Source of the DNA: Candidatus Latescibacterota bacterium
GTDB taxonomy: Bacteria; Latescibacterota; UBA2968; UBA8231
Length of the DNA: 64,000 nucleotides
Reading direction: 5' to 3'
NCBI GenBank assembly: GCA_965248355.1
Contig: OZ252098.1
Span: 4,192,001 to 4,256,000, forward strand
Shown here: piece by piece, positions 7,346 to 43,316 of the stretch
Layout of the letters: each line of letters begins with the position of its first letter
Position numbering within the stretch: position 1 is the stretch's first letter
The notes under the pieces: model-generated
Told to the model about the DNA's origin: nothing
Databases searched by the model: none
Seen by the model: only the letters and a program-made list of their open reading frames with translations
Program-made: the position numbers and the translations under genes

Positions 7346-8495
7346 TGGCCAGCCGGCACAAGTACCGTGTGGCCGTCATCGGCTGCGGCAGCCACGGCAC
7401 GCGCCTGCGCGGACCTTCGATCTGGACCCGCGGTGCCGGGTGGTGTGCGGGGCCAACAGGGGGCGGGAAGGACGGGACCTGTTCTGCGAGCGGTTCGGCG
7501 GCCTGCCCGGTTACCAGGACTACCGGCAGCTGCTCGCCGAGGAGGAGTTCGAGATCGCCCTGCTGGCCCTCCCGGTCTCCGTGAACCCCGAGGTCGTCGC
7601 CGCCTGCGCCGGGAAGGAGGGGGTCGCCGGCATCTTCAGCGAGAAACCGGTGGCTGTCAGTCTCGCCGAAGCCGACGGCGCCGTCGAAGCCTGCGCCGCC
7701 CGCGGCATCCCCTGGTCGGCGGGGGACATGTTTCGCAACGCCCCCGAGATCTGGACCGCCAGGCGCCTGGTCGAGTCCGGCGAGATCGGCGAAGTGCAGT
7801 CGATTGACATCTACGGCTGCGGCGGCAACCAGATGTCGGGCCAGGGCTGCCGGCAGCTCTCCGACGGCTTCATGTTCGCCGGCGACGCGGAGGTCGATTG
7901 GGTGGTGGGAGCCGTCGACGGGGATCCGGCCGACGCCCATCTGGGCCGCATCGACGAGCACAGCGACCATGATCAGGGGATCGCCTTCGGAGTCATCGGG
8001 TTCGCGAACGGCCTCACCGCCCACCTGCACCGGAACGTCTCGGCGAAGAATGGAATCGAGGTGCTGGGTTCCGACGGTGTGTTGTTCATCGGGCAAAGCC
8101 GCGTCGGAGAGATCCGGCGCCGGGACGGGCGCCATCTCAAGCCGGCCCGCAGCCTGTTCCCGCACCCCGACCCGGGGCAGGCCGCCCTCCACCAGTACGA
8201 CGAGGAGGGCTGGGAGATCCCTCGCACGCGCATGAGCGACAGCGTCGCGGCTTTCCTCGACGCCGTCGAGAGCGGGGTTTCCGTGAAGTGCTCGGGCGCC
8301 GACATGCGCAAGGCCCTGGAGGTGGCGGTCGCCATCCGCGAGTCCCATCGGCGCGGCGTCGTCAGGGTGGATCTCCCTCTCCAGGACCGCAGCCTCCGCA
8401 TCATCCCCAGCCTTCGCCGCTACCTCGGACGCCGGGAGTCGGAGGGCACCGAGGCCTTCCTCGCCCACATCCGCGGCCACAAGCGGGACAATTGA
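7345..8495 (+). pseudogene. Gfo/Idh/MocA oxidoreductase with a 1-bp frameshift near 7407 (pseudogene or sequencing error)
   Basis: MASRHKYRVAVIGCGSHG in one frame continues as ARTFDLDPRC...FSEKPVA in another. Confidence 0.8.
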
Positions 8496-23955: not shown

Positions 23956-24554
23956 CCGGCCTGGTGCTGCAAGGAAGGGTCAACTGGTCCGGCGAGCACT
24001 GGATCAGCTATCTGCGCCCGCCGGGCGCCTCGGCGGACACCGGCATGGTCAGCCTCTACAACATGCGCTACACCGAGGCCGGCCACGGCTTCGTCGCCTT
24101 CGTCGTCATCGACGACGAAGGCGGTCCGGCCTTCAAGGGCCTGTGCACGGACAACCGGGGGCTGGTGGATTTCGTCCGCGAGCGGGTCCTCCACCAAGCC
24201 AGCCATCCGCCCTACGACGAAGAGCTGCCGGTGATGGAGGCCCACTTCACCCAGGCCGGACACGTGGCCCGCGACCCCTCGTGGACGATCGCCGCCGCCG
24301 GGCGAGAGATCACGGCCCGGTGGGGGCGGATCCAGCCGGTGGTCATCGCCGCCGGCCCCTGGCCGGGCGCCGGCCCGAGCAACTACGTCTGCTCCCTGCT
24401 TCACTTCGCCGAGGAGTCCTCCATCACCCTGGACGGGCGCGCCGTGGCAGGAAGGCCCTATCCGCGGGACATCTGGAGGCCCTCCATCGGCGGCGACCGC
24501 AGCTCCTGCGTCTTCGCCATCTCGGAGAGCCTGCTGACGGTGGAGCTGGACTGA
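23952..24554 (+). CDS. Hypothetical protein
   Basis: ATGA coupling with the cupin gene; typical codon bias. Confidence 0.65.
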   Translation: MTGLVLQGRVNWSGEHWISYLRPPGASADTGMVSLYNMRYTEAGHGFVAFVVIDDEGGPAFKGLCTDNRGLVDFVRERVLHQASHPPYDEELPVMEAHFTQAGHVARDPSWTIAAAGREITARWGRIQPVVIAAGPWPGAGPSNYVCSLLHFAEESSITLDGRAVAGRPYPRDIWRPSIGGDRSSCVFAISESLLTVELD

Positions 24555-24602
24555 GCGGGTACGCCAGGAAACGAAGCTCCTGACAGGTTCTTTTATTCGC
24601 AG

Positions 24603-24794
24603 CTATCGAAAGGAACCGGGGAGTCGCTGCGCATGGGGCTGGTAGCGGGGGAAGTGGTGAACCTTTTGGCCGTTCTCGCTCCACCGGGTAGCCACGCACA
24701 GGGCGCCGGGGCGGGCGCCACAGACGGGACACTCGACGGCCAGGTCGTCACTGTGGGCCCGGGCCGTCGTTCGGCGCCTCTCGGTCTCGGTCAT
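24603..24794 (-). CDS. Small phage-type zinc-finger protein
   Basis: MTETERRR...VECPVCGARPGALC...PHAQR (CPxCGAxPGxxC...H); purine-rich RBS upstream. Confidence 0.55.
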   Translation of the reverse strand: MTETERRRTTARAHSDDLAVECPVCGARPGALCVATRWSENGQKVHHFPRYQPHAQRLPGSFR

Positions 24795-24982
24795 CGGATC
24801 GCGCTTTCCCTCTCCGGGGTTCCCCGGCTCCTCGCTGGAGCCGGGCCGCACACAACCACCGCGAAGCCCGGCATTTCCCCGGGTATCGAACACGGAGGGA
24901 GCGCACGTTAGCAGAAACTAACCCCCGGCGCCTTCGACCGCCGCGGCGCCCGATCCGAGCCCTGGCGCAGCCCGGCGAGCAA

Positions 24983-25900
24983 ATGGCCCTGTTCCACCTA
25001 CCCCCGGACGTGGAATGCCTGTCCTGGCTGCTCAACGCCTACGACCAGTCCGGAGGCGAGGCCATGACCAAGGGCCGGGGCGCCCCTTGGGACCTGCGCC
25101 TATGGGTGGCCTTCATGCTGCACCTTTTCCATCGAGGACAGAGACGGACAGCTACACGGCTGCCGCTTCGCAGAGGCCCGCGTTATCCGATGGCTGCACC
25201 CGGACGGGTGGGCAACCGCCGCGGCGACTGGCACCGCTTCCCGGAGGCCCTGCGCCGCGTCTCCGGCCTGACAACCCCCTTCGGCAATTGGGACGTTCCG
25301 CTTATCACCGTCCAAGCCTTCCCCCGCGAGTACGACCCGGACGCCTGGATCCCCGTCAACCAAGTGTGCCCGCCGACCGCCGCCCGGGGCGCCCCCGTCG
25401 ACTTCGACCGCCTGACCCGCTACGGCACCGAGTCCGCCACCCTGTACCGCGCCTACCTGTCCGCCGTCGCCTGGATGGACCGGAGCGCCCGCCAAGGCCG
25501 AGCCCTCACCGCCGCCGACGGCGAGGCCCTGGCCCGCTTCAACCGGCCCCTCACAGCGGACGGCCTGGCCCGGCTGGCCGGCCTGGACCCCAAGGCCAAC
25601 CGCACGAACCGCCGCCGCTCCCTGGCCGCCTTCGAGCGCCTGGCCGACGACGGTATGCTCGACCTGGTGACCGATGGCCGCTCCCGGTTCCGCCTGCTTG
25701 GCCCGTGTCAACCGGGTACACTCGCCGCCGTAAGTGACTGTCCCGCAACGGTTCCCATTTTAGCCCGAGCAGTACCCGAACAACGCCGCTCTAGCGAGCG
25801 AGCTTGTACTGCTACCGCACCGACAAGAACCCCACCCCCAAACCCAACAGCAGCAGCGAGGCGCCCCGGGGTTCTGCAACCCCTGACCCGCGAAGCCTAG
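24983..25900 (+). CDS. Hypothetical protein, possibly a replication initiator with a C-terminal winged helix; probably degenerate
   Basis: Protein-like blocks (APWDLRLWV, LYRAYL, LARLAGL...AFERLADDGMLDL); apparent compensating frameshifts at about 25127-25210; the end after about 25710 is uncertain. Confidence 0.45.
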   Translation: MALFHLPPDVECLSWLLNAYDQSGGEAMTKGRGAPWDLRLWVAFMLHLFHRGQRRTATRLPLRRGPRYPMAAPGRVGNRRGDWHRFPEALRRVSGLTTPFGNWDVPLITVQAFPREYDPDAWIPVNQVCPPTAARGAPVDFDRLTRYGTESATLYRAYLSAVAWMDRSARQGRALTAADGEALARFNRPLTADGLARLAGLDPKANRTNRRRSLAAFERLADDGMLDLVTDGRSRFRLLGPCQPGTLAAVSDCPATVPILARAVPEQRRSSERACTATAPTRTPPPNPTAAARRPGVLQPLTREA

Positions 25901-26820
25901 ACACAACCCCCGGAACCATGGCGCGTATGCGCGGCTGTTGGCGCATACGAGGGCAGCCAGCACGACCCCCGTACCATGGCGGAATATTCCGTAGCGTAGC
26001 CCCTAAGGCGCAGCGTCAAACGGAATATCTCTGCCAGGCACATAGCCCTCCTTCTCACTGCTGCGCCCCACGGGCGCCCTCACCGGTAGCGGTACAGCAC
26101 GAGCCAGCAGATACGAGACAACGGCGTACGCCATCAACAGCCGTCCGGCCGTTGATGGCCTAACAGTGCCGAGAAGGCCACGCTTACCGCTTCGCCCTTG
26201 AGGGGCTACGCTGCTGAATATTCCCGCCCCTGATACCTGATTGCAGACAGGCCCGGCACCCCGGATGCAGCAACAGCAAGATGGCAAGGGAACAGCAACA
26301 GCGCCGGACTCAAGCCACGGTTGACGCAGCTTGGGAAGGGCTGCCCGGGGTCCGTATCGTGAGCCGCGACGCCCGCGACGCCGACACTGGGGAGCGCGGA
26401 TGGATTGTGGTTCCAGAGGATGCCGCCGCCGCCATCGAGGCCCGATAAGGGGATTTGCCGCCAACCGGCGACGAAAACGGCCGTAAGTTGTTGTTTTTTC
26501 CCCATTATGCACCTCCCTCGACCCCGACAAGGAAGGGAAGGGGGGGGAGAAGGAACGGGCCGGGACGGCCTGACGGGCCGCCCTCCCGTCCTTCCTGCCC
26601 AAGAGCAACATGCAACAGCCTACCCCACCCCCACCCCCACCCCCACCGCCCCCACGCCCGTCAACAGCCGTCCGGCCATTGACGGCCTAACGGAGCCCGT
26701 CGCCACCCACGCCAGCCGAGCCCCAGGCACCGGCACATCGAGGCCCTGCAAGACAGGCCCGGCACCCTTCATGCAGCAGCAGCAGGGAAGGGTGTCCAAC
26801 GGTTTGACGCCCTGGGGAGC
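25845..26820. repeat. Cluster of direct repeats, inverted repeats and hairpins (putative origin, packaging site or structured RNA)
   Basis: IR 25978-26010/26193-26228; DR 25902-25923/25961-25981; duplicated hairpin 26130-26159/26658-26685; DR 26245-26261/26751-26767; seven CAACAGC copies. Confidence 0.8.
26281..26448 (+). CDS. Small hypothetical protein (55 aa, below the ORF-track cutoff)
   Basis: MAREQQQRRTQATVDAAWEGLPGVRIVSRDARDADTGERGWIVVPEDAAAAIEAR. Confidence 0.35.
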   Translation: MAREQQQRRTQATVDAAWEGLPGVRIVSRDARDADTGERGWIVVPEDAAAAIEAR

Positions 26821-26835
26821 AACAGATACCCTCTA

Positions 26836-28006
26836 GTGTCGCGTCCGACAAATGAGTTGTAAAAACAGAGTCAAGGCCTTATCTTCAGGCCATGGCCCGC
26901 CCGGTGTCCCGCCTTGAGTTGACCGCGTCCGAGCGACAGGAGTTGGAGCGTCGCGTCAGGGCCCCCTCCGCGTCCCAGCGCGACAGCCTGCGCGCGGCCA
27001 TCGTCCTGCGCCGGGCCGAAGGGATCAAGCAGGTGCAGGTGGCCGCCGAGTTGGGCGCCAGTGTGGCGTGTGTGAACAAGTGGTCGCAACGCTTTGATCG
27101 CGAGGGTTTGGCGGGACTGAACGACGCCAAGGGCCGGGGCCGGCCGGCGAGCTTGCCGGCGGACAAGGTCGAGCAGGTCCTCACCGCGGTCACGCAGCCG
27201 CCGAAGCCGCGCACGCGCTGGAGCGTGCGCTCGATGGCCCAGGCGGCGGGGATGTCGCCGGACAGCGTGCACCGGATCTGGAAGGCCAACGACATCAAGC
27301 CCCATTTGACCAAGACCTTCAAGGTCTCCACGGACCCGCACTTCGAGGAAAAATTCTGGGACGTGATCGGGCTCTACCTGGATCCCCCCGAGCGCGCGCT
27401 GGTGCTGTGCTGTGACGAGAAGAGCCAGTGCCAGGCGCTGGAACGGACCCAGCCGGGCTTGCCGCTGGGGATCGGCGACATCCGCACCCGGACCCACGAT
27501 TACAAGCGCCACGGTACGATCACCTTGTTCGCCGCGCTCAACTACCTCGACGGCAAGCTCATCGCGCGTCTGGAGGCGCGTCATACCCACGTCGAATGGC
27601 TCCGCTTTCTCAAGCAGATCGACCGCGAGACGCCCAAGAACCTGTCGCTGCACCTGATCGTGGACAACGCCGGCCCCCACAAGGAGGAGAGCGTGCAGCA
27701 TTGGTTGTCTCGGCATCGGCGCTTCCATGTCCATTTCATCCCCACCAGTTCCTCCTGGATGAACTTGGTCGAACGGTTCTTCGGCGAGCTGACGCAGGAT
27801 GTGATTCGGGACGGCAGCTTTGCCAGCGTCGGGGAGTTGGTGCGCGACATCGAAGCCTACTTGGCGCAGCGGAACTTGGCCCCCAAACCCTACCGCTGGA
27901 AGGCCGACGGCGAGACCATCCTGCGCAAGATCCAGCGCGCTCGGGAGACGGTGGCGGCGACATCGGACAGCCCTTGTTGATTCTTCTTAATTCTCGGACG
28001 GGACAC
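26836..28006 (+). mobile_element. IS630 family insertion sequence
   Basis: Terminal IRs GTGTCGCGTCCGACAAAT / ATTCTCGGACGGGACAC with TA on both flanks (26834-35, 28007-08). Confidence 0.92.
26892..27980 (+). CDS. IS630 family transposase
   Basis: HTH, CCDEKSQCQAL, THDYKRHGT, IVDN, WMNLVERFF DDE motifs. Confidence 0.95.
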   Translation: MARPVSRLELTASERQELERRVRAPSASQRDSLRAAIVLRRAEGIKQVQVAAELGASVACVNKWSQRFDREGLAGLNDAKGRGRPASLPADKVEQVLTAVTQPPKPRTRWSVRSMAQAAGMSPDSVHRIWKANDIKPHLTKTFKVSTDPHFEEKFWDVIGLYLDPPERALVLCCDEKSQCQALERTQPGLPLGIGDIRTRTHDYKRHGTITLFAALNYLDGKLIARLEARHTHVEWLRFLKQIDRETPKNLSLHLIVDNAGPHKEESVQHWLSRHRRFHVHFIPTSSSWMNLVERFFGELTQDVIRDGSFASVGELVRDIEAYLAQRNLAPKPYRWKADGETILRKIQRARETVAATSDSPC

Positions 28007-28008
28007 TA

Positions 28009-29313
28009 GTGGCCGCCATCTTTCTCGCCTACCTGGTGGGACCCCTGAACGAACGCGGCTGGCGTGGTCTGGTGGCGAGCCTCACCGGACGCCTGGCCGG
28101 CGAGCTGCGAGAGGCCACCCGCGACACGGCCCTTGTCTCCGGTCTCCAGGTCCACCGGCGGCTGAGTCCTCCCCCGGGCCGCCTCACTGGGGAGAACGGC
28201 GCCACGGTCGACTTCCTGGCCGCCGACCGCGCCGGAGCTCATGCCATGGGCGCCGACCTGGCCGTCGTCGACGAGGCCGGCCTTCTGCAGGAACGTGACC
28301 GCCCTTTGTGGGATTCGGTGGTGTCGTGTCTTGGAGGCCGCAACGGGCGGCTGCTTTGCATCTCGATTCAAGGCCGCGGTCCGATGTTCGCCGAGATGAA
28401 GGCGCGCCGGAAGGACCCGGCCGTAGTGTATCACGAGTACGCCGCCGAGCCGGAGGATGACCCCGCTTCGGAAGCGACGTGGCACAAGGCGAATCCCGGC
28501 CTGAAGTCTGGCGTCAAGAGCATCGAGCACATGCGACGGGCCGCCCGCCGCGCCCTGGGCGCCCCGGAGGCCATGCCCGGCTTTCTGAGCTACGAGTTGA
28601 ACATGCCGACGGACCCGGCTATGCAGACCATCGTCTCCGTGGACGAATGGCTACCGCTCTACGAGGCCGAGGTCCCGGAGCGCGACGACGACGTTACGAT
28701 TGGCGTCGACCTGGGCGGCAGCACGTCGATGACCGCCGCCGCGTTGTACTTCCCGCGCACCGGGCGGCTGGAGGTCCTGTCAGCCTTCCCCTCTACCCCG
28801 GACCTGCGGGAGCGAGGCCGCGCCGATGGCGTTGGTAGCCTCTACGAGACCCTGCGAGACACTGGGGAGTTGCTTGTGCTGCCGGGCCGCGTCACCCCGG
28901 TTGACGAGTTCCTGGCGAGAGTGGGCGAAGAGGTGGCCGACCTGCGAGTTGTGTCCGCCGGCGCCGACCGCTTCCGCCGGGCCGAGTTCGAGCAGGCCGT
29001 TGAGAACGCCGGTCTCCAGTGGCGTCTGGAGTGGCGCGGTTCCGGCGCCCACGGCACCACCGAGGCCGCCCACGACGTTCGAGCCTTTCAGCGCGCCGTC
29101 AGAACCCGGGCCCTGTTCCCTCACCGGCACCCGTGTCTTGCCCTGGAGAGCGCCATAGCCGCCTCGACTCTGACGTTCGACGTGGACGGAAACCCCCGCC
29201 TCGACCGGCGTACTCGCCGGGGACGAATCGACCCGTTGAGCGCGACCGTGATCGCCTGCGGTCTGGGCGAGCTGGCCCGGCCGAGGCTCGACCGCCGTTT
29301 CCTCATCCGATGA
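28009..29313 (+). CDS. terL: Phage terminase large subunit, N-terminally truncated (Walker A missing)
   Basis: Walker B LAVVDEAG, ISIQG, WHKANPGL, nuclease IGVDLGG and RIDPLSA. Confidence 0.88.
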   Translation: MAAIFLAYLVGPLNERGWRGLVASLTGRLAGELREATRDTALVSGLQVHRRLSPPPGRLTGENGATVDFLAADRAGAHAMGADLAVVDEAGLLQERDRPLWDSVVSCLGGRNGRLLCISIQGRGPMFAEMKARRKDPAVVYHEYAAEPEDDPASEATWHKANPGLKSGVKSIEHMRRAARRALGAPEAMPGFLSYELNMPTDPAMQTIVSVDEWLPLYEAEVPERDDDVTIGVDLGGSTSMTAAALYFPRTGRLEVLSAFPSTPDLRERGRADGVGSLYETLRDTGELLVLPGRVTPVDEFLARVGEEVADLRVVSAGADRFRRAEFEQAVENAGLQWRLEWRGSGAHGTTEAAHDVRAFQRAVRTRALFPHRHPCLALESAIAASTLTFDVDGNPRLDRRTRRGRIDPLSATVIACGLGELARPRLDRRFLIR

Positions 29314-29365
29314 CAACCCCCTCAAATCGCCCGTATCGGGCGTTTTCACCGAAGGAGCACCACCC

Positions 29366-30573
29366 ATGTTGAAGTCACAGAAGGCCGCCCTCGCACTCTC
29401 CAAGCTGCGCGAGCGCGCCGCGATCCTCACCGGGCAGGAGACCGCACCGCCGAGGAGGACACCGAGCTGCAGGCCTTGCCCGGCCAGGTCGCCGAGGCGG
29501 AGAAGCAGTACCGCACCGCCGTCGAGGCGGAGGACGCGGAGAACCGCCGTGAGCCCGACGGCGAGGTCCGCGAGCTGGCCGGCCTACAGTCGCGCGCCAG
29601 TGTCGCCGAGATCGTGGCCGGCGCCATGTCCGGAGGACAGCCCGAGGGCGCCACCCGGGAGCTGCAGAAGCACCACAACCTGGCCGGCAACCAGGTTCCG
29701 CTTTCCCTGTTGGTCGACCGCCAGCAGCCCGAGGACCCGGACCTGCAGAAGCGCACGTCCGGGGTCACCCCGGGGCCCACGTCCGGGCCGGCCATGCAAC
29801 AGCCGGTGATCCCCTTCGTGTTCCCGGAGTCCGCCGCCGCCTTCCTGCAGATCCCGCAGCCGACCGTCCCGGCCGGCGAAGCCGTCTACACCGTGGTCAG
29901 CACCGCAGCGACCCCGGGCAAGCCCGCCGAGGGTGCCGACCAGGACCACAGCGCCGGAGCCCTCACCGCGTCGGTTCTCACCCCGTCGAGGATCCAGGCC
30001 TCGTTGTTCTTCAGCATCGAGGACCGCGCCCGGGTGCCGCAGCTCGACGCGGCGTTGAGGGAGAACCTGTCCGCCGCCCTGGCGGATGAGCTGGATGAGA
30101 CCGTGATCGACGACCTGCTGACGGGCTCCACCCTGTCGCAGATCGACGCCAGCGCGGCCGACACCTTCGAGACCTACCGCTCCCGGTTCGCCTTCCTTCG
30201 CGTGGATGGCACGTACGCGAGCGACACCGAGGCCCTGCGCCTGGTGATCGGTTCGGCAACCCTGGCCTCCATGGCCGCCAAGTTCCGCGGCACCGCCTCC
30301 GACGTGGACGCCTACATGAGCCTGAAGGAGATCACCGCCGGGGTGCGGGTGTCCGCGCACGTCCCGGGCGTTACCAGCAACAAGCAGCCCGGCGTGGTCC
30401 GCCGAGGATCGAGGATGGACGCCGTGACTGCCATGTGGCAAGGCGTCGAGCTTTTGGAGGACAGGTATACGCAGACCAAGGCCGGGGAGGTGGTCCTGAC
30501 CGCGACCATGTTGTACGCGCACCAGGTACTCCGCACCGCCGGCTTCCCCCGCGTCGAGGCGCAGCACGCATAG
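29366..30573 (+). CDS. Phage major capsid protein (HK97-like) with coiled-coil N-terminus; 1-bp frameshift near 29442
   Basis: RBS AAGGAG, MLKSQKAAL..., then EEDTELQ...LTPSRIQASLFFSIED...LAD...GEVVLTATM; located between terL and the protease. Confidence 0.75.
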
Positions 30574-30578
30574 GCCAC

Positions 30579-30607
30579 GGGCCCGGGGGTTCAACACTCC
30601 CGGGCCC
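30579..30607 (+). terminator. GC-rich hairpin after the capsid gene (attenuator or mRNA-stabilising stem)
   Basis: GGGCCCGGGGGT-TCAAC-ACTCCCGGGCCC, 12-bp stem with one G-U pair, weak U tail. Confidence 0.55.
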
Positions 30608-30627
30608 CTTCAGAGAAGGAATCCAAG

Positions 30628-31137
30628 ATGCAGCCGGAGAAGCGATACAGGTACGCGCCCCTCACGTTGCGCCAGGATGGCGACGGCCGGCGGCTGGAGG
30701 GCGTGCTCGTTCTGTATTCCGAGATCGCCCCGGCCTTCGGGAAGAGGATCGAGCCGGGCGCCTTCGGTGACGTGGGCCAGGTCGACGCGATCTTGAACCT
30801 GCAGCACGACAGGAGACGACCTCTCGCCCGATCCGGTGCCGGTCTCGACCTGGTGGACACCGCCGAGAACCTGCAGGTCCGCGCCGAGCTGCCGGATACC
30901 ACCGACGGCAACGACGCCCTGACCCTGGTCAAGGCCGGAGTGCTGCGAGGCCTGAGCGCGGAGTTCTTCGTCCGAGAGGCGCACACAAGCCCGGAGGGCG
31001 TCGAGGTCGTGACCGGCGCCGAGCTGGTAGGTGTCGGCCTGGTCGACCGCCCGGCCTATCCGAGCGCGACCGTGGAGGCCCGCCAGGAGGCGCAGAGACG
31101 CCGCCTGAGCCGTTCGGCCGCCGGGGTGTGGTTCTGA
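30628..31137 (+). CDS. HK97 family phage prohead protease
   Basis: IEPGAF, NLQHD (His), GLSAEF (Ser), VGLVDRPAYP. Confidence 0.9.
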   Translation: MQPEKRYRYAPLTLRQDGDGRRLEGVLVLYSEIAPAFGKRIEPGAFGDVGQVDAILNLQHDRRRPLARSGAGLDLVDTAENLQVRAELPDTTDGNDALTLVKAGVLRGLSAEFFVREAHTSPEGVEVVTGAELVGVGLVDRPAYPSATVEARQEAQRRRLSRSAAGVWF

Positions 31138-32177
31138 TGGGGTGGCCCTTCCGAAAGCGAGAGGCGCCCGTCAGGGTGGACTACACATCCCAACGGATCG
31201 CCGAGATCCTGAGCCGGGCCAACGCCCCGGAGGTGGACGCGGCCGCCGTCAGCGCGGTGGCTATCGCCTCCAGCCTCTACGAGTCCGCCGTCGTGGCCGC
31301 CACCTTCACCGCGGAGGGCGTCGACTTCCCGGCCTGGTGGAGAGCCCTACTCGGCCGCGCCCTGATCGAGCGAGGCGAGTTCGTGTCCGTGATCGACGTG
31401 GAGGACGGAGGGCTGGACCTGCTGCCCTGCACCTCGTGGGATGTGACCGGACGCGCCCGGCCCTCCGAATGGCGCTATCGCTGCGACGTGGCTTCGCCGT
31501 CCAGAACCTTCACAAGACGGGTGCCGGCCGAAGGCGTGGTCCATGTGAGACTACACGCCTCCGCCTCCGCTCCCTGGAAGGGCCGCGCCCCGTGGGCCGT
31601 GGCGTCCAGAACATCGGCCCTGGCCGGCCGCATCGAGACGGCCCTCGAGCGCGAGGCCGTCTTGCCCTCCGGCACACTGACGAGCTTCCAGGACCTGACC
31701 GCCGTGCAGATGGATCAACTTGAATCCCGCTTCAAGACCGGAGGCCACACCGCTGTCAGCTCTGGAGGCCCCGCCTCTCAAGTCTCCAGTGCGCCGACCC
31801 GCTTCGGACCGGCCCCCGCCTCGGCGATGGTTTCGCTTCGTGAGCAGGTCCAGGGTGACGTTCTGAGCGCCTGCGGTATCGTCCGCGAGCTGGTGCAGTC
31901 CGGCCAAGGGACCAACGCCCGCGAGGTGACGCGACGGTGGAGGACTCTGCACCTGGAGGCCGTCGGCGACCGCATCCGCGAAGAGCTGGAGGCGAAGCTG
32001 GACCGCGAGGTCCGCCTTGACTGGAACCAGGTCGAGACCCCGGACTCCCTGGCGCAGCGCGCCCGCGTCGTGAAGGACCTGACGGGCGCCGGGGTGGACC
32101 TGAGCGAGGCCCGCGCCGTGGCCGGGCTGTCCGCGCCGGAGGTCCTGCCCCCGGATTCTGAGGCCCCCGCTCGCTGA
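31137..32177 (+). CDS. Phage portal protein
   Basis: TGATG coupling; ALIERGEFV, VPAEGVVHVR, PWKGRAP, VLSACGI portal-like blocks. Confidence 0.75.
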   Translation: MGWPFRKREAPVRVDYTSQRIAEILSRANAPEVDAAAVSAVAIASSLYESAVVAATFTAEGVDFPAWWRALLGRALIERGEFVSVIDVEDGGLDLLPCTSWDVTGRARPSEWRYRCDVASPSRTFTRRVPAEGVVHVRLHASASAPWKGRAPWAVASRTSALAGRIETALEREAVLPSGTLTSFQDLTAVQMDQLESRFKTGGHTAVSSGGPASQVSSAPTRFGPAPASAMVSLREQVQGDVLSACGIVRELVQSGQGTNAREVTRRWRTLHLEAVGDRIREELEAKLDREVRLDWNQVETPDSLAQRARVVKDLTGAGVDLSEARAVAGLSAPEVLPPDSEAPAR

Positions 32178-32313
32178 TTCCGGGGCGCGCCGGCCCGATC
32201 TCCCCCGGGCCCGTGTCCCACACCCGGAGCCTTCCAAAGGCCGTCAGACGGCGCCTGAGCGCCCCGGAGCCCTTAACCTTCCCGGCCTCTCCCCCCACGA
32301 AACGGAGGCCGAA

Positions 32314-32910
32314 ATGACCACCAAGATCCGCTTTGCTCTCGTATGGGCTGGGGCCCTCTTGGTTGTGCTCTGCTTCGACGGGCGGCTGGCCGGAGAGACT
32401 CCCACGGCCGAGAAGCCCGTTCCGCCCGCCGCCGGCTTGGAAGCCCAGGTCGACTCTATCCTGAGCACCTTAGTGCGGGGGCAGCCATGCCTGGCCGCCG
32501 GCAACTCATCCCACGACTGCTTCCAACTCTGGAGCGCGTGCCGGCCGTTGGATCTGATCGTTGAAGGCCTGCCCGAAGACGCGGAGGAGATCGGGCTGAC
32601 GAGGGAACGCATCCAGACGGCGGCGGAAAGCCGGTTGCGGGCCGCGCGGCTGTACGACGCGGAGGCGGGCCACTACCTGTATGTCAACGTCAACGTTGTA
32701 GGGCGCGCGTTCTCAACCGGCGTCGGATACAACAAATTGCTGCATGACGAGGCGTTGGGTATAGGCGGGCGGGCTCAGACCTGGCATGTCGGGGCCGCCG
32801 GGACGCACGGAGGCGACGCGGGCTACATCCTGCAAGACGTGTCCGAGCAAATGGACCGCTCTGTTGTCGAGTACCTGCGCGTGAACGAAAGCGCCTGCGC
32901 CGGGCCCTGA
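32314..32910 (+). CDS. Putative secreted hypothetical protein
   Basis: RBS GGAGG; signal-peptide-like N-terminus; GLTRERIQTAAESRLRAARLY. Confidence 0.65.
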   Translation: MTTKIRFALVWAGALLVVLCFDGRLAGETPTAEKPVPPAAGLEAQVDSILSTLVRGQPCLAAGNSSHDCFQLWSACRPLDLIVEGLPEDAEEIGLTRERIQTAAESRLRAARLYDAEAGHYLYVNVNVVGRAFSTGVGYNKLLHDEALGIGGRAQTWHVGAAGTHGGDAGYILQDVSEQMDRSVVEYLRVNESACAGP

Positions 32911-33049
32911 CGGCGCCGCCGTCGCAGTTTCGATAATCGCAGATAGACATAGACGCTCTCTTCGAATGGACTCTGTGTCATTTCGACACTGTAAGTCCGC
33001 CGAGTCCTGTCACAGACATTACCTTGGAAGGAAATTGCCAATGAACCAA

Positions 33050-33903
33050 GAACCTATCTCAAAATCACTACACATAACCTTGAGTTCTGATTGCTGATGA
33101 TGTACCATTACTGTATGGTTACTCTGACCGACCAGCAATGGGAACGGATCCGTCATCACTTTCCTGAGGAGCATCGCCCCGGGAGCCATCCGGGTCGTAA
33201 ACCGATTGCCACCCGTGACGTTCTTGAAGCTGTGCTTTGGATTCTCAATACCGGGGCTCAATGGCATATGTTGCCGCAGTGCTATCCGAACTACAAAACC
33301 GTGCATCGCCGTTTTCAAAATTGGTGTCGTCAAGGGGTGTTACGCGAAGTTCTCGTGGACCTGGCCCAGACTCTTCACGAGCAAGGGGACTTGGACGAAT
33401 CGGAAGCTTTCATTGATGGCATGTTCTCGGCGGCCAAGGGTGGAGGTGCCGATATCGGCCACACCAAGCGAGGCAAGGGCGTACGAGTCATGGGGATCGT
33501 GGACCGCCATGGGCTTCCCTTGTCGGTGAGCACGCATGCAGCGAACCATCATGAAGTGACGCTGGTTCAGTTGACGTTTGACTTCTACCTGATCGAAGAC
33601 AAACCCAAGAACTTGATTGGAGACAAAGCCTACGACAGCGACCCGTTAGATGAGGAGCTGAAGAAAGAAGGGGCCGAGATGATCGCTCCCCATCGCCAGA
33701 ACCGAACCAAGAAAAAGACTCAGGACGGACGCCGATTGCGTCGCTATGTGCGGCGTTGGATGGTGGAGAGATTCTTCGCTTGGCTTCAATGGCAGCGTCG
33801 AGTGATCACTCGCTGGGAATTGTATCCGGAGAATTTTCTTGGCTTCGTCCAACTTGCCTCCATCCTGATTTTACTTAAGCAATTTCAATTTTGAGATAGG
33901 TTC
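33050..33903 (+). mobile_element. IS5 family insertion sequence
   Basis: Perfect 16-bp IR GAACCTATCTCAAAAT (33050-65) / ATTTTGAGATAGGTTC (33888-903), AA on both flanks. Confidence 0.93.
33115..33894 (+). CDS. IS5 family transposase (single ORF)
   Basis: LTDQQW, LNTGAQW, TVHRRFQNW, FIDG, GDKAYDS, RWMVERFFAWL. Confidence 0.93.
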   Translation: MVTLTDQQWERIRHHFPEEHRPGSHPGRKPIATRDVLEAVLWILNTGAQWHMLPQCYPNYKTVHRRFQNWCRQGVLREVLVDLAQTLHEQGDLDESEAFIDGMFSAAKGGGADIGHTKRGKGVRVMGIVDRHGLPLSVSTHAANHHEVTLVQLTFDFYLIEDKPKNLIGDKAYDSDPLDEELKKEGAEMIAPHRQNRTKKKTQDGRRLRRYVRRWMVERFFAWLQWQRRVITRWELYPENFLGFVQLASILILLKQFQF

Positions 33904-33930
33904 AAGATAGTAGAGAAGGCCATAAAGAGC

Positions 33931-35996
33931 ATGAAAGGGATTGATGACGGGATGCGCACGTGCCTGGTACTGACTTGGGTTTTCGCAGGGCCGATCCCCG
34001 ACGCTCTCACTGCAGAGAGCCCAGCCAAGATTTACGCCTCGGGTCCGAGTGGCATTGTCCGCATGAACTTGGACGGCTCCGAGTTCGAGGTTCTGATTGA
34101 TGCCGACGGGAGACGCCCTGGCGATTTGGCGATAGACTGGATGGAGAGCAAGCTCTACTGGAGTGACGGGTGGAAGATCCACCGTTCCAATTACGATGGT
34201 TCCCAGTTGGAATCATACGTTGATATGCACCCGAGTACATGGTTATCGGCGCATCGTGATGACTTGACCGGGTTCTCCATGGATATCCACTCCGAGGATC
34301 GGCTACTGCTGTTCACGGCCAGTTTCAGTTATCATTACGAAACCAACCAACTGGCTTTTGTGAACATCGACGATGGGCTGGGTTCAGTCTCTGATGTGGA
34401 GTTCGATGATGAGAGCAACGCCTACATCAGTGGGGCCGCCATAGTATCTACTGACAGTAGTCGCGTTCTGATGTGCTACGCTCTAGAAGCTACAGAAGAA
34501 GGAGTTCTCGTTCCGTCGTGTTATTCGCATGAGTGGAGGGACAAGGGAAACGGATACAACTATCTGGCGAGCCACGGCCAAGACTGGGAATTCCTTGAAG
34601 ACTATCACTACTTCGTGGAGGAGGGCGGGAATCATTGGATCAGACGGAATAACTACAACGAGGACATCCTGCTTGTAGAGAAGCAGTTGTTCTCATGCGG
34701 GTTTGACCAGTCCACATTCGATCCGCCGCCTCAAATGGCTATGGACACGCGCCAAGGAGTCATGTATGTAAACTCATCCGAGGGACGAATTGCCGGATCG
34801 TTCTGCAACGACGCCGGAAAGTTGGAATCCAAGGAGATCTTTCTCGGCGTACAGGATCCTCCCCAGATGGTTGATATGGCAGCTCATGATGGCAATGTCT
34901 TCTGGTCCGACGTTCAAGGGGAGATCTGGCGTTGGCATGACGATGGTAGCGAAGGTGGCTCACTGGAGAAGGTATTCGCCCCTGTCGTTCGTAGGCCCAG
35001 AGGACTCTTCGTGGACCATCAAGCTGGCAGGATTCTCTGGGCAGATCCCTTGGCACGGACTGTCATGCAGGCCGACCTGAAGGGTGCGAGTGTCGAAGTG
35101 ATTGCCGAGGGAGAGGGGGATGTGCATGACGTCCTTGTGGCGGAGGGTAGGCTCTACTGGTCTGAACCAGAAGTGAGCACCATCAAATCAGCGAATCGGG
35201 ATGGTTCGGATGCAAAGGAGATTCTTGATTTGCAGGGTGGCTATTTTCCGACCGATCTCGACTACGAACCAATGAGCAAAAAGCTGTACTGGACGTCCTT
35301 CGGATATATAGGGAGATGCAACCTCGACGGATCAGAGATCGAAGTCGTGAGGACTACGATACGCGTTGAAGACATTGCCGTTGATGGAAATGAAGGAGTC
35401 ATCTATTATGACTGGGTCCGGTAGCGGAGGCGAGACAGAGGACGGGTATCCCGGTGTATGGAAGTTTCATTTCGATACGCAACACGCCGTACCAATGTAC
35501 CATGGCTACTATCCGGCACAATCCATTGATGTGCTGGGCGATAGAGTATTCTGGTCCGTACCGGAGTTAGGTTACTATCCTTGGGCATTCATTTATCACT
35601 CCGACAAGGCAACTGCAGAACAGTCATACACACATGGTCGCTACAGAGAAGTGGAACGCATTGCCATATACCGCCCGGAGGGGGTGGCAACCGCACTTGA
35701 GGATCCAGATCTCCCAGTCCCCGGCGCGACGTCTCTGCATTCCAACTACCCGAACCCCTTCAACAGTAGCACGAGGATCCCCTACACGGTGGCTCAGGGG
35801 CGGTCATGTGTCGCTGACCATTCACAACGCCATGGGCCAGCCAGTCGCCTCTCTGGTGGACGAGGTGCACGAAGCGGGAATTTACGAGGTCGTCTGGAGC
35901 ACGGAGGGAGAAGAGGTTCTGGCCAGCGGAGTCTATATGGTCCGTTTGAAGACAGGAGACGCTGTGAGGGTAAGGAAGCTTACTCTGCTCCGGTGA
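33931..35996 (+). pseudogene. Secreted YWTD/LDL-receptor class B repeat beta-propeller protein with C-terminal T9SS-type-A/FlgD-like domain; frameshifts near 35415 and 35800
   Basis: KLYWSD, ILWADP, LYWSEP, KLYWTS repeats with NLDGS; SNYPNPFNSST...ASGVYMVRL...KLTLLR spread over three frames; visibly lower GC. Confidence 0.8.
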
Positions 35997-36094
35997 GTTG
36001 GATCGCCGCAGACGGGGGAGTGGGAGTCTCTAACGGCCGCTATGGTGCTCAGGGTCCGGCTCCTTGAGGCTGTCGTAGGTATTGCCGTATAGCT

Positions 36095-36372
36095 GCAGGT
36101 GGGTCGCCTTCGCCCGGCCCACGATCCGGCGGCTCCAGGCGTCCAGATAAGGAATCCTGCTCCCGTTCGGATGTAGGTGAGGTCCGCGATCCACAACTCG
36201 TTCGGACCGGCGGCCGAGAAGACTCGACGGACCAGGTCGTAGGCGACTGGGCCGCGGGGACGGCGACGGGTCGTGGCGAACCGACGCCGTCGGCAGACGC
36301 CGCGTACCCCGAGCTCGAGCATCAACCGGGCGACGCGCTTGCGACTGACGCTGCGCCCCTGCTCGGCCTGGC
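36095..36372 (-). pseudogene. IS3 family transposase (OrfB) remnant
   Basis: SRKRVARLM...DLVRRVFSAAGPNELWIADLTYI...DAWSRRIVG. Confidence 0.85.
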
Positions 36373-36379
36373 GGATTCC

Positions 36380-37954
36380 TCACACCTGCGCGTGTAGCCT
36401 CTCCAGCGCCCGATACCTCTCCAGCAACCCGTCGTAGATCCCCCGGGTCGCCGGGTCCGGCTCGACCGGCGCGGCAGCCTGCAGCCGCATGAAGGGCTCC
36501 GTCACCTCCGCCCAGGAACGCTCCTCCCCCGAGCCTCTGGCGTGGCCGTGGGCGGCCATCAGTGCGGCGCCCCGGGCGGCGGCGTTCGTGGTGCGCAGGC
36601 GCTGCACGGGGCAGCCGTGGACGTCGGCGAAGACTCGCAGGATCTCCTCGTTCTCAGAGGCGCCGCCGGTGACCCGCAGGGAGCGGATCTCCACCCCCAT
36701 CCACTCGGAGTGGATCCTCGACGACAAGGCCTGGGCCTCGATGACGGAGCGGGCGTTGGCCGCGGCGTCGGCCTCGTCCAGGTCCTGGCGCACGACGCCG
36801 GGTTGGGTCACGCGGGGGACGATTTCCTCGTCGAACCAGGGCAGCATGAGGGCGCCGCCGTTGCCGGGGGGCGTGGCGGCCAGCCCCTCGGAGAAGCCGG
36901 ACCAGTCCAGGCCGTAGCGGTCGCGCACGGCCTCGCGCGCCAGGCTGCCGTTGAGGAAGCAGGTGAGCGCCATGTAGTGGTCCCCGTCGGGAGAGGCGAA
37001 GAGGGCGCCCTCGCCGGTGACGGGTAGACGGGGCTCGTCCAGGCAGGCGAAGAGGGTGTCGCTGGTGCCCAGGCTCAGGGCCGCCTGGCCCGGCTGCAGC
37101 AGTCCGAGGCCGATGAGGCTGCAGGGGTTGTCGCCGGAGAAGGGCAGCACCCGGCACTCGGGGGAGAACCCGAAGCGGCCGGTCCAGAAGGGGCTCAGGG
37201 CGCCGGCCACCACACCAGAGGGGATGACGGGCAGCAGCCGGCGGCCCAGGTCCGGCGCCGTGGCCTCCAGGGCGTCTCCGCTCCAGCGGCGTGTCCGGAT
37301 GTCCATCAGGTTCGTTCCGCTGCCGTCGCCGGGGTCGACGGGGACCAGCCGCCCGGCGAGGAGGCTGGCCACGAAGGAGCTGACCAGGCAGATGCAGCCG
37401 GTGCGCGCGTAGGCCTCTGGCTCGGTCTGCCAGAAGCGGCGGATCTGGGGGCCGCTGAAGCGCTCGAAGGCGGTGTTGCCGGTCAGCTCCAGCAGCTTGC
37501 TCCGGCCGCCGACGCCGGCCTCGATCTGCCGGCACTGCTCGCTCGTGGAGGTGTCCATCCAGATCGGGGCCGTGGGCCGCGAGAACACCTCGCCGAGCTG
37601 GTCCGCCAGGTCGTGGTCGGGGTCGAGGCCGCCGAAGGCGCCGGCGGCGCCCTCGTTGAGGTAGACGGTGCCGTGTTGCTGGCCGCTGCCGGCGATGGCC
37701 TCGATCCCCCCGAGGTCGACGCCGGCGTCGCGCAGGCGCGCGCACAGAAGCTCCAGGGCCTCCGCCCACATCAGGGGAGGGGCGTGGATCCGGCCGCCGC
37801 CGAGGTCCAGCACTCCCTTGTCGACGCCGTAGCGGCCCGCGAAGTGCTCGTCGAAGCCGATCGACTCCTCGGCCAGGAGAGCGCCGCCGGCCGTGTCGAT
37901 GACCAGGCCGGTCATCGACTGGGTGCTGCAGTCCACACCGAGGAAGTTGCCCAT
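36380..37954 (-). CDS. xylB: Xylulokinase (FGGY family, eukaryote-like subtype)
   Basis: LGVDCSTQS, SGQQHG, WMDTST, ERFSGPQI, LVSSF, SGDNP, SLGTSDT, TGGAS. Confidence 0.85.
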   Translation of the reverse strand: MGNFLGVDCSTQSMTGLVIDTAGGALLAEESIGFDEHFAGRYGVDKGVLDLGGGRIHAPPLMWAEALELLCARLRDAGVDLGGIEAIAGSGQQHGTVYLNEGAAGAFGGLDPDHDLADQLGEVFSRPTAPIWMDTSTSEQCRQIEAGVGGRSKLLELTGNTAFERFSGPQIRRFWQTEPEAYARTGCICLVSSFVASLLAGRLVPVDPGDGSGTNLMDIRTRRWSGDALEATAPDLGRRLLPVIPSGVVAGALSPFWTGRFGFSPECRVLPFSGDNPCSLIGLGLLQPGQAALSLGTSDTLFACLDEPRLPVTGEGALFASPDGDHYMALTCFLNGSLAREAVRDRYGLDWSGFSEGLAATPPGNGGALMLPWFDEEIVPRVTQPGVVRQDLDEADAAANARSVIEAQALSSRIHSEWMGVEIRSLRVTGGASENEEILRVFADVHGCPVQRLRTTNAAARGAALMAAHGHARGSGEERSWAEVTEPFMRLQAAAPVEPDPATRGIYDGLLERYRALERLHAQV

Positions 37955-41613: not shown

Positions 41614-41661
41614 GAGACCTGAAGCCTTAGCGAGGTGTGATCTGGAAGCCGCTGGGTGCCC

Positions 41662-42159
41662 ATGTCTTCCTTACTGAATGAGCCAGAGCGAAAAGAAGCG
41701 CTGTCACGGGCCTATGTGCACGCCGTCGCTGCGCGGGCAGGTTATATTACAGCCGTCTACGGAGAGGATCGGGACGGTATCGATCTTCGTATTCAAGCGG
41801 GTGGTGCGATGCGTCCCGCGCTTGAATTGCAGTTGAAAGCGACCGTAAACTTGGGTGAAGTAAAGGATGGCTGTTTTCATTTCCCACTGAAGCGCAGGAA
41901 TTACGACTTGCTTCGTATCGAAACGCAGACGCCCAGACTGCTTGTAGTGCTTGATCTGCCGAAGGATGAGAGAAAGTGGGTGACGATCACCGAGGATGAG
42001 CTTGTGATGAGGCGTCGGGCCTATTGGTTGAACCTAAAGGGTTTTGAGGAGACGGAAAATCGATCGTCCGTCACGGTCCGAATTCCGGCAGGTAACCTGT
42101 TTGACGTCGCGAAGCTGAATACGCTGATGGAGCAGTCAAGAGAAGGGAGAATCCAATGA
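41662..42159 (+). CDS. DUF4365-like (PD-(D/E)xK fold) protein
   Basis: EALSRAYVHAVAA, DRDGIDL, LELQLKAT, NYDLLR, AYWLNL; lower GC. Confidence 0.75.
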   Translation: MSSLLNEPERKEALSRAYVHAVAARAGYITAVYGEDRDGIDLRIQAGGAMRPALELQLKATVNLGEVKDGCFHFPLKRRNYDLLRIETQTPRLLVVLDLPKDERKWVTITEDELVMRRRAYWLNLKGFEETENRSSVTVRIPAGNLFDVAKLNTLMEQSREGRIQ

Positions 42160-43316
42160 GGGTAAGCATCTGGGACAAAGAACCCTTGCTTGAAATTTCG
42201 CCTGCGGCCTTGTCTGCCTACGCTCGTTCTGCGGGTTGGAGAAGGACGGACAGCTATGGCAACTCGTCAGATGTTTATGTATCTGAGGAGCGACCAGAGA
42301 TCATCTTGCCTCGGACCCAACGGTTGGGTGATTACGCCAATGTTGTATCTCAATTGATCGAGATATTCGCGGAGGCGGCCGATACCGACGAGCTTTCGCT
42401 CTATCGCGACTTGGTTACAGCGGATCGGGATGTAATTCGCGTGCGAGCCTCGGAAGACAACGATGGCGCGGTTCGAATAAGCGATGGGATCGACCTTGTG
42501 TGCGGAGCGCACGATATGGTCTTGGCTGCAGTCTGTTCGCTAGGTGCACCGCGACCCGTATATCGCGCGGGTGCCAATAAGGAGGCCATGGACTATGTGG
42601 GCAATATCCGCATGGGGCAGACCGAGCAGGGCAGCTTCGTGGTCACTCTGTTGACCCCTGTTGTTTGTCCGCCCATGCAAGAGGTCCTCTGGTCAGACGT
42701 GGCGCGGAACGACGATCCAATTGAGCGGCAGATGACAAAGCGTCTAGCTTCTGCTCTGCGAGCTACCCGGGAAGCGGCTGAAAGAGTGGTGGGGGGGGAC
42801 GCCGACGCGTTCTCGGAGGCCGTGGAAAGGGGCGCAAGCGCCAATTTGTGCGAAGCGCTGGTGAGGTTGATCGAGCCATTTCCAACATTGGATGTCAGTC
42901 TGACGTGGGCCCGAACGCATCCGATGAACAGGGTCCGGGATGTAGTTCGCTTTGGCAAGGGAGACGCTCCGATTCTGCGTGAGGCCGCGCGGCTGTTTCG
43001 TGATCGGAGTCCGCGAGCGGATGTCCATGTCGTTGGCTTTGTGCACAGGCTGAAGCGGGAGGAGGGGGAAGTGGATGGGAGTATCACCTTGCGAGCATAC
43101 ATTGACGGCGAGCAGGGACAGGAGTTGTCAGTTTCGGCCGTCTTGTCCCAAGAAGACTACGAGCGCGCCATCCAGGCACACAAGGAAAGGGCGCTGGTTG
43201 TCGCACAGGGTGACCTGGAGAGATACGGTCAGCGCTGGAGGCTGCTCAATCCTCGCATTGAGGCCCTTGTCCCTGTGCCAGAAGAGACAGAAGAGACAGC
43301 GGAGGAAGAAGATTAG
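42156..43316 (+). CDS. Hypothetical protein translationally coupled to the DUF4365-like gene
   Basis: ATGA overlap; MGQTEQGSFVV, GASANLCEAL; C-terminal OB-fold-like strands. Confidence 0.75.
   Translation: MRVSIWDKEPLLEISPAALSAYARSAGWRRTDSYGNSSDVYVSEERPEIILPRTQRLGDYANVVSQLIEIFAEAADTDELSLYRDLVTADRDVIRVRASEDNDGAVRISDGIDLVCGAHDMVLAAVCSLGAPRPVYRAGANKEAMDYVGNIRMGQTEQGSFVVTLLTPVVCPPMQEVLWSDVARNDDPIERQMTKRLASALRATREAAERVVGGDADAFSEAVERGASANLCEALVRLIEPFPTLDVSLTWARTHPMNRVRDVVRFGKGDAPILREAARLFRDRSPRADVHVVGFVHRLKREEGEVDGSITLRAYIDGEQGQELSVSAVLSQEDYERAIQAHKERALVVAQGDLERYGQRWRLLNPRIEALVPVPEETEETAEEED

Follow-up and report, generated by a model that had tools for sequence, protein, structure and literature searches.

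We analyzed a window of 64,000 nucleotides from the genome of a Candidatus Latescibacterota bacterium (GenBank assembly GCA_965248355.1, contig OZ252098.1, positions 4,192,001 to 4,256,000 of the forward strand), a genome that consists of a single contig of 5.5 Mb; the window has a G+C content of ≈67 to 70%, and positions given for this locus are those of the window. Within it lies an element that begins at 24560 or 24594, depending on the evidence used, and ends at 32940. It measures 8.4 kb, or 7.2 kb without an inserted insertion sequence (IS) of the IS630 family, and carries four phage-type head genes on the plus strand inside 4.2 kb (28009–32177), in the order terminase, capsid, prohead protease, portal (Table 1). 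An initial annotation, made from the sequence alone, had read here four co-oriented head genes in about 4.2 kb, preceded by a zinc-finger open reading frame (ORF), a Rep-like ORF, and a repeat-rich region and followed directly by a secreted protein, in an element of about 7 kb without the IS. Searches with Pfam and PHROGs, a predicted fold resembling that of the plasmid initiator pi, and the repeats and signal-like segment described below bear this picture out. We consider it likely that the segment 24560–32940 holds a decaying copy, no longer functional, of a small mobile element that encodes a capsid; the element belongs to a recurrent family and is most likely helper-dependent.

The terminase gene is a remnant of a large terminase (TerL) gene that starts at the junction with the IS630 element. 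It keeps the Walker B motif and the nuclease domain and lacks ≈106 N-terminal residues including Walker A, aligning from residue 99–107 of the intact proteins encoded by two related loci, L002 and L010; tblastn searches with four intact relatives did not find the missing N-terminal piece anywhere in the 5.5-Mb genome. The capsid ORF itself has no Pfam match. Its homologues, 132 at E ≤ 1e-3 among 8000 scored candidates, are ≈400 residues long, and many of them match PF05065. This gene is also broken: the ATG and ribosome-binding site at 29366 are in one frame and the rest of the gene is in the frame of 29476–30573, with a family-like N terminus of ≈25 codons giving way to the other frame near 29430–29450. 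Two metagenome contigs cover this place, one of 4315 nt from run X1 (possibly the source sample) that spans 28010–32294 with zero differences, and one of 8192 nt from run X5 (an independent sample from another study) that spans 28572–33040 with 11 substitutions and one indel at the distant position 32714. Because both contigs match without an indel at the frameshift, the break is not an assembly slip of a single record.

The protease and portal genes are intact; the portal gene starts just ahead of the protease stop codon, so that the two overlap, and no adaptor gene separates them. Pfam and PHROGs revealed no HNH nuclease, small terminase (TerS), tail gene, or holin gene in the window, nor any AlpA-, MerR-, or Stl-type regulator, the zinc-finger ORF with its PF24623 match being the only candidate there. 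A connector was likewise not detected in the window by Pfam, by PHROGs, or by a hidden Markov model (HMM) of the adaptor domain introduced below. The stretch 24560–36377 gave no match to families of integrase, neck, tail, or lysis genes, in keeping with the initial annotation, which had seen no connector, tail, lysis, or integrase gene.

Table 1. Features of the element and of its borders, in window coordinates
Feature	Position	Strand	Evidence and remarks
TerL remnant	28009..29313	+	Pfam TerL_nuclease, E 2e-10; PHROG 9, E 1e-38
HK97-type major capsid gene	29366..30573	+	PHROG 617, E 0.002; homologues with PF05065
Prohead serine protease (S78)	30628..31137	+	PF04586, E 9e-17; PHROG 80; ORF intact
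Portal	31128..32177	+	PF04860, E 4e-10, 40.0 bits against a cut-off of 39.1; ORF intact
Secreted-type protein, 198 residues (ORF198)	32314..32910	+	N-terminal hydrophobic signal-like segment, read from the translation without a predictor
Zinc-finger (CxxC) DNA-binding-type ORF	24603..24893	-	PF24623, E 3e-6; 61% identity to the ORF of the second copy
Rep-like gene	24983..25900	+	305 codons; initiator-fold family; frame-broken
Non-coding repeat region	25901..26835	none	Two diverged repeat blocks with hairpins, inverted repeat, purine/pyrimidine runs
IS630-family element	26836..28006	+	Transposase 26892–27980; PF13358 (DDE_3) and helix-turn-helix domains; terminal inverted repeats
IS5-family element	33049..33900	+	Transposase 33091–33894; PF13340/PF01609; right boundary, outside the element
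Left junction of the inserted segment	24560..24602	none	Same-genus synteny stops at 24559; homology to the second copy begins at 24594

The IS630-family element, which adjoins the truncated terminase, has a TA at both junctions, and the genome holds at least 14 full copies of it at 99.7 to 100% identity; at least six further copies of the IS5-family element at the right boundary occur at 99.7 to 99.9%. Both are recent and look active. Since the insertion of an IS by itself spares its neighbors, and with at least 14 IS630 copies at hand, a secondary IS-linked deletion or rearrangement is the likely route by which the 5' part of the terminase gene was lost. The copy is non-functional: its TerL, capsid, and Rep-like genes are broken, and no integrase or att pair is left. 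The damage that the initial annotation had ascribed to the IS630 and to frameshifts is thus real and takes the form of the TerL truncation and the frame breaks in the capsid and Rep-like genes. Transposases are also often present inside the loci of relatives (L019 3944–10495, L010 14192–15994, L015 13576–14595, and L018), with ≈5.5 kb of IS genes interrupting the capsid gene of L019. IS-driven decay seems to be common in the family.

The same gene order recurs far beyond this genome. A search with a capsid alignment confirmed 18 loci in contigs drawn from one genome per species, along with six viral contigs of 4.8 to 12.4 kb. In 13 of the 18 genome loci, terL, capsid, and portal lie on one strand in this order, and the protease sits between capsid and portal in 10 of these by tblastn and in three more (L003, L006, and L011) by family scans. 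The other five comprise L009, with no tblastn match for a portal, L014, which runs capsid–portal–adaptor–Hc1 with no TerL match, and the fragments L005, L017, and L018. The ordered loci come from metagenome-assembled genomes (MAGs) of Alphaproteobacteria, Chloroflexota/Dehalococcoidia, Binatia, Acidobacteriota, and Thermodesulfobacteriota. Two of the six viral contigs (L024 and L025) show the full order and two more (L020 and L022) a partial one. Closer to home, four genomes of the host's own family have the same layout, as integrated islands (G025 and G040), as a compact cassette (G161), and as multi-copy contigs (G056). Two scans of metagenome contigs, one with an ORF198 alignment and one with an alignment of the closest capsids, gave no confirmed relative.

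ORFs were annotated in L002–L020, L022–L025, L035–L037, and L075, with L021 outside the scan. Their common layout is terL-(HNH)-capsid-protease-(adaptor)-portal, and the genes that recur encode a tyrosine integrase, AlpA or an excisionase, a D5 primase, primase-helicase, or replication initiator, TerL, HNH, capsid, protease, small neck proteins (Ad1, Hc1, or Neck1/gp10-like), and portal. Integrases were found in nine of the 18 genome loci, three of the six viral contigs, and two same-family islands, and AlpA or an excisionase in L003, L004, L008, L010, L013, and L020; in most relatives an HNH gene follows TerL. No annotated locus has a match to a TerS family or to any tail tube, tape-measure, sheath, or baseplate family. 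Among the annotated relatives, no tail-category match falls below E 1e-4, the sole row being phrog_1756 at E 1.8e-4, in which no stretch passes alone. The islands are compact, being bounded by host genes or tRNAs that lie 9.5 to 10.7 kb apart (L003, L008, L011, L013, and L036 are examples; L003 extends from an integrase at 4008 to a tRNA-Asn at 14014), a spacing that leaves no space for a tail module. In five of the 15 loci scanned (L003, L006, L008, L011, and L013), a tRNA gene stands close to the outermost gene of the island, at ≈400 nt or less. In one alphaproteobacterial MAG (L004, 4618–20849), two related elements stand in tandem behind a single integrase, the second opening with TerL at 15443.

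Free forms exist as well. The viral contig L022 has a 99-bp terminal overlap that closes it to a circle of ≈9.4 kb. In G056, the contigs C12 and C9 (L037 and L038, ≈22 kb each) consist of ≈2.1 tandem units of 10.4 to 10.5 kb with unit-to-unit identities of 99.98% and 99.2%, a pattern consistent with a concatemer or with a small circle that the assembly ran through twice. The genes of this unit (L037) are those for a GH108 endolysin, TerL, capsid, protease, an 870-residue adaptor-fusion protein, a 141-residue ORF, and portal, with no integrase; with L039 (contig C6), the G056 bin contains at least three sequence variants of the 10.4- to 10.5-kb unit. A Chloroflexota MAG contig of 9925 bp (L016) and a viral contig of 9543 bp (L024) are colinear from end to end at 76 to 91% identity. 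They end at nearly the same points and show no terminal repeat, and the pair may represent a complete linear genome of ≈9.5 to 9.9 kb. The evidence to which the initial annotation had looked, namely recurrence of the order without tail genes, intact copies with an integrase, and circular forms, was in each case found, and none of the annotated related loci is a full tailed prophage of the kind that would make the window copy its deletion remnant.

At the sequence level, the family stands apart from described phages. A search of 50,697 phage records gave no match at E ≤ 1e-3 for either capsid or portal; TerL matches 85 of these records, all below 60% identity, with an HK022-like protein best at ≈25%. 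Our limited literature search found no description of a family with this organization for these lineages.

Most members of the family are not as minimal as the window copy. We built an HMM from the first 115 to 125 residues of large proteins of 600 to 870 residues that L007, L022, L024, and L037 encode between protease and portal, and in most of the other loci this Ad1-domain HMM picks out small ORFs in the corresponding place, the ORF of L011 being a PHROGs head-tail adaptor Ad1. An Ad1-type adaptor domain is present in 22 distinct related loci, many of which also have Hc1 or Neck1, and L014 carries an adaptor of a different family after the portal. Only five evaluable copies lack an adaptor: the window copy, a second copy in the same genome, L002, L010, and L075. 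The minimal connector-less form envisaged at the outset is therefore not the rule in the family. It is also not merely a product of decay, because L002 and L010 have four intact head genes and an integrase, L010 adding AlpA and a D5 primase. The large proteins share the Ad1-like N-terminal domain of ≈100 residues and have divergent C termini; a weak ESM-Atlas lead points to viral LamG-type proteins, with a score of 0.88 against a line of 0.9.

[quoted passage not shown] The window TerL is sister to that of the G056 episome (L037) with support of 99/97, and this is also its nearest relative by tblastn, at 51% identity. Both fall in a clade of eight (99/99) with L002, L010, L035, L036, and L016/L024. 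In this tree, the compact copies are not united in a single clade, L075 lying elsewhere.

The second copy in the genome is diverged and partial (G000:C1:2743345-2745908, corresponding to L052 7330–9909). It sits between a HEPN_Swt1/DUF499 gene and HEAT/PhyH genes and consists of protease (69% identity), portal (58.5%), ORF198 (77 to 81%), and a convergent, immediately adjoining zinc-finger ORF (61 to 68%), all four open, with no capsid gene, TerL, or tail gene. From this layout, it follows that ORF198 and the zinc-finger gene belong to the element, and that position 32940 joins 24594 on a circular map. Of 168 genomes of the phylum, 18 encode ORF198-like proteins, among them 13 of the 15 genomes of one genus, and in nine other loci that we examined, the homologues are not beside portals. 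A neck protein was considered for ORF198 and rejected on account of its signal-like N terminus and of these nine loci. We read ORF198 as a captured accessory (cargo) gene of the element.

At the left end, the zinc-finger ORF probably starts at the Met at residue 34 of the ORF as called. The Rep-like ORF beside it has no Pfam or PHROG match, and a language-model look-up led to plasmid initiators with scores of 0.91 to 0.93. The profile of G+C at third codon positions (GC3) and the family consensus, which fits another frame, show that the gene is out of frame at ≈25125–25215, with two frame breaks. Its coding signal fades past ≈25650, and it lacks an N-terminal part of ≈270 residues present in most homologues; it is probably a pseudogene. 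With the intact C-terminal part as query, 205 homologues score E ≤ 1e-3; most are proteins of 450 to 550 residues that match at their C-terminal halves, and 20 of 21 scanned have no Pfam family. In the AlphaFold model of one homologue, P0126, residues 290–510 are confident, with a predicted local distance difference test score of ≈85 to 97. Foldseek with this model returned nothing from the PDB at E ≤ 0.001. VIA-align superposed model residues 237–510 on the pi initiator of R6K in its complex with iteron DNA (2nra_C) with a Z score of 10.7 and a root-mean-square deviation of 3.8 over 204 residues. The next match is RctB (Z 6.9), unrelated helical rows score 5.8 or less, and RepA WH1 is also listed, at 4.8. 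The model thus predicts for this gene family a dual winged-helix iteron-initiator fold of the pi, RepE, RepA, and RctB class.

Downstream of the Rep-like gene, the repeat region contains two diverged repeat blocks (26131–26170/26658–26697 and 26245–26278/26751–26784) and an inverted repeat (25981–26011/26194–26224). The blocks are 30 to 40 nt long and ≈510 to 530 nt apart, which differs from a classic iteron array, and their hairpins are only modestly more stable than shuffled sequences (z −2.6 and −1.5). The region is a candidate origin or packaging site, and the repeats, lying next to the Rep-like gene, may be its origin. Rfam found nothing at E ≤ 1 in 24400–33200.

Comparison with same-genus genomes delimits the insertion. 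They share its flanks, on the left as far as 24559 and on the right starting at 36377, at ≈88 to 92% identity, and four of nine such genomes (G002, G004, G006, and G007) have syntenic flanks. In the three with both flanks on one contig, 2.5 to 6.4 kb take the place of the window's 11.8 kb. None of the nine has the capsid gene or the portal; the capsid gene is present in four of 101 relatives, its own genome included, and portal homologues are present in six of 168 genomes of the phylum. In G002 (contig C9; L041 ≈6505–6582 and 7421–7498), the 3' end of the left-flank gene is directly repeated over 78 nt (93 to 94 nt in another comparison) at 96% identity, 823 nt apart, and resembles an att-type scar. 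In G007 (contig C1; L076 6117–6777), the fragmented C-terminal half of a tyrosine integrase abuts the conserved right flank and is, in pieces, 44 to 55% identical to integrases of the family islands; the remainder of the 6.35-kb filler there has a lower G+C content. Because of this repeat and this integrase fragment at the same position, the site is an integration hotspot. Arrival of the window copy by an integrase is accordingly plausible, though the window itself has no tRNA gene, 13 family integrases used as tblastn queries had no match in 24560–36377, and comparison of the 490 nt at the inner end of the left flank with 24640–37000 gave only 12-nt chance matches in place of att repeats.

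Two further patches of the window differ in base composition. Between the IS5-family element and a conserved FGGY kinase gene, 33931–36067 has a low G+C content (52 to 55%) and encodes a 497-residue protein with a match to low-density lipoprotein receptor class B repeats and a 233-residue ORF that has no matches; it looks like a separate foreign insertion. The other, 41656–43316 (57 to 63% G+C), encodes a DUF4365 protein and a 386-residue ORF with no Pfam match, and is possibly a small acquired island.

Taken together, the relatives suggest how an intact element would most likely work. Its tyrosine integrase would place it in the chromosome, in many cases next to a tRNA gene; otherwise it would exist as a circle or concatemer of 9.4 to 10.5 kb. 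Excision would be assisted by an AlpA-type excisionase, and replication would be started by an initiator of its own, whether Rep, a D5-type primase, or a primase-helicase. Capsid protein, S78 protease, and portal would build an HK97-fold procapsid, to be filled by the element's own TerL, in most members together with the HNH nuclease, and completed with its own adaptor and neck proteins. As tail tube, tape measure, and baseplate are all missing, tails would most likely come from a helper phage, as in capsid-forming PICIs. In the lineage found in the window's genome, a plasmid-type Rep with the repeat region stands in for the primase, a zinc-finger protein and a secreted cargo protein are encoded, and there is no adaptor gene.

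The members of the family are most likely satellites, and several observations weigh against this view or against parts of it. No helper phage was found, and we infer helper dependence from gene content; Pfam searches of the host's own genome with PF05065, PF04860, and PF10145 returned nothing, and as they also missed the two known portal copies, they are uninformative about helper prophages. Genes were called with a home-made ORF and GC3 picker and searched with Pfam or PHROGs locus by locus, some ORFs with both; many small ORFs have no annotation. The nearest capsid homologues, at 55 to 60% identity, are known only as ENA proteins and could come from a larger phage. Because the window has neither att repeats nor an integrase, integrase-mediated entry of this copy is something that we only infer from the site. 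Lastly, some relatives have an endolysin and an adaptor-fusion protein of 600 to 870 residues, and for that reason could be autonomous.

This last point opens the way to an unlikely alternative, that the family consists of autonomous miniature viruses of 9.4 to 10.5 kb with a head, a neck, a long fiber-like arm that is fused to the adaptor and serves adsorption, and an endolysin, which would do without a helper's tail and of which the window holds a remnant. The G056 unit has just such a content, with GH108 endolysin, head genes, and the 870-residue protein but no integrase, and its TerL is the nearest relative of the window TerL both in the tree and by identity. The divergent C termini behind a common Ad1-like domain, the ESM-Atlas lead just under its line, and the end-to-end colinearity of L016 and L024 at 9.5 to 9.9 kb point the same way. 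However, no replication, tail tube, or DNA-ejection gene was recognized in these units, most members are integrase-bearing islands with neck genes only, as in cf-PICIs, the lineage in the window has neither the fusion protein nor a lysin, and the fiber reading leans on a weak language-model lead. It is very unlikely that the copy is instead the stump of an ordinary tailed prophage from which tail, lysis, and lysogeny modules have been deleted. The heavy damage, the two flanking IS elements, and a terminase whose lost 5' end shows that deletions happened here all suit such an origin, as does the fact that the closest capsid homologues are known as proteins only. Yet no annotated relative has a tail module, the intact ones are confined between host genes and tRNAs 9.5 to 10.7 kb apart, the gene order is not that of HK022 (terS-terL-portal-protease-capsid-adaptors-tail), capsid and portal are unmatched in the 50,697 phage records, and the second copy in the genome, with its protease-portal-ORF198-zinc-finger run, is equally free of tail genes.

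That second copy could also be taken to mean that the host retains protease, portal, ORF198, and zinc finger for a function of its own, such as interference with phage assembly: two copies that have diverged to 69% in the protease, 58.5% in the portal, and 77 to 81% in ORF198 both keep these four ORFs open, and their other genes are lost or broken. We regard this as highly improbable, given that capsid and portal are absent from all nine same-genus genomes, that portal homologues are found in just six of the 168 genomes of the phylum, and that deletions from the 5' side would equally leave a 3' block. A gene transfer agent does not fit either. Agents of the RcGTA type are vertically kept head-plus-tail clusters common to a host clade; here, the capsid is in 0 of 9 genomes of the genus and the portal in 6 of 168 of the phylum, and no tail genes were found. 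Of the initial proposal of capsid-forming satellites or tail-less gene-transfer particles, the part that stands is a recurrent tail-less family in non-model lineages; a working tail-less particle is unsupported here, because three genes of the window copy are broken.

A bolder arrangement of the same material, conceivable if doubtful, treats the family as 9.4- to 10.5-kb replicons of uncultured phyla that carry a complete HK97-type head and packaging machine and span a continuum of three forms. Some would be integrase-bearing, tRNA-targeting satellites with their own neck; others would be adaptor-less four-gene cassettes that borrow the neck from a helper or release tail-less DNA-filled heads; and a third form would comprise circular or linear genomes that lack an integrase and encode, beside an endolysin, a portal adaptor with a fused arm of 500 to 750 residues. 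If this were true, these last genomes would rank as the smallest known tailed-virus-like entities that are self-sufficient, or else be satellites with an adsorption organ of their own.

The window copy is genomic debris that mainly marks a past infection and IS-driven decay, and the interest of the locus lies in the family to which it leads. Enterobacteria and Firmicutes are the groups in which capsid-forming satellites have been characterized, and Streptomyces has one separate family. The elements described here add a further, sequence-unrelated lineage in at least five phyla of mostly uncultured bacteria, with a fixed size of ≈10 kb and a conserved layout of its own. If they are satellites, they support an independent and repeated origin of the strategy of pairing one's own head with a borrowed tail, over a wider range of hosts. 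The adaptor-less cassettes and the 9.4- to 10.5-kb genomes with adaptor fusion and lysin also probe the minimum needs of a DNA-packaging particle.

Among known systems, temperate siphoviruses of the HK97 and HK022 type share the protein folds and families, with TerL, a PF04860 portal, a PF04586 protease, and a PF05065 capsid. They differ in order, the HK022 record running terS-terL-portal-protease-capsid, followed by adaptors and a full tail module in a genome of ≈40 kb, which agrees with the terminase-portal-protease-capsid order that the initial annotation had given for HK97-like phages. [quoted passage not shown] The Streptomyces satellites MulchRoom and MiniFlayer, capsid-encoding and reported as unrelated in sequence to cf-PICIs, bring terminase, portal, capsid, and head-to-tail adaptor, and one member, which has lost its integration module and has extra adsorption-type genes, parallels the integrase-less adaptor-fusion members found here (PMC10690885). 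Compared by description only, they differ in their terS-terL-portal-capsid order, low G+C content, direct terminal repeats, and virulent helpers (PMC10690885).

The closest organization is that of the cf-PICIs, whose gene order we took from the annotated record of EcCIEDL933 (Escherichia coli O157:H7 EDL933): integrase, regulator, primase, capsid, protease, portal, head closure, connector, HNH, TerS, and TerL. This layout fits the core set described in PMC10085698 and bioRxiv 10.1101/2025.02.11.637232, and it agrees with the initial annotation that cf-PICIs combine capsid-protease-portal with retained connectors. Of the cf-PICI core features, the window copy has its own capsid, protease, portal, and large terminase, whereas integrase, regulator, connector, and HNH/TerS were not found there; for the replication module, it has the broken initiator-fold Rep-like gene and no primase, in contrast to the D5 primase, primase-helicase, or replication initiator of its relatives. 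The family places TerL, with HNH, before the capsid rather than at the far end and the adaptor between protease and portal rather than after the portal, and no separate TerS was recognized in it. Against EcCIEDL933, tblastn detected TerL at 20% identity (E 5e-7) and the protease at 34% over 96 residues, and did not detect capsid or portal. The hosts differ too, being uncultured, non-enteric phyla, and the lineage in the window has a plasmid-type Rep and no adaptor. We thus view the family as cf-PICI-like in organization, with sequence lineages and a layout of its own. Both are small integrative islands of ≈10 to 15 kb with integrase, AlpA, and a replication module, both encode their own HK97-type capsid, S78 protease, portal, adaptor or connector, HNH, and TerL with no tail or lysis genes, and the capsid-protease-portal order is common to the two.

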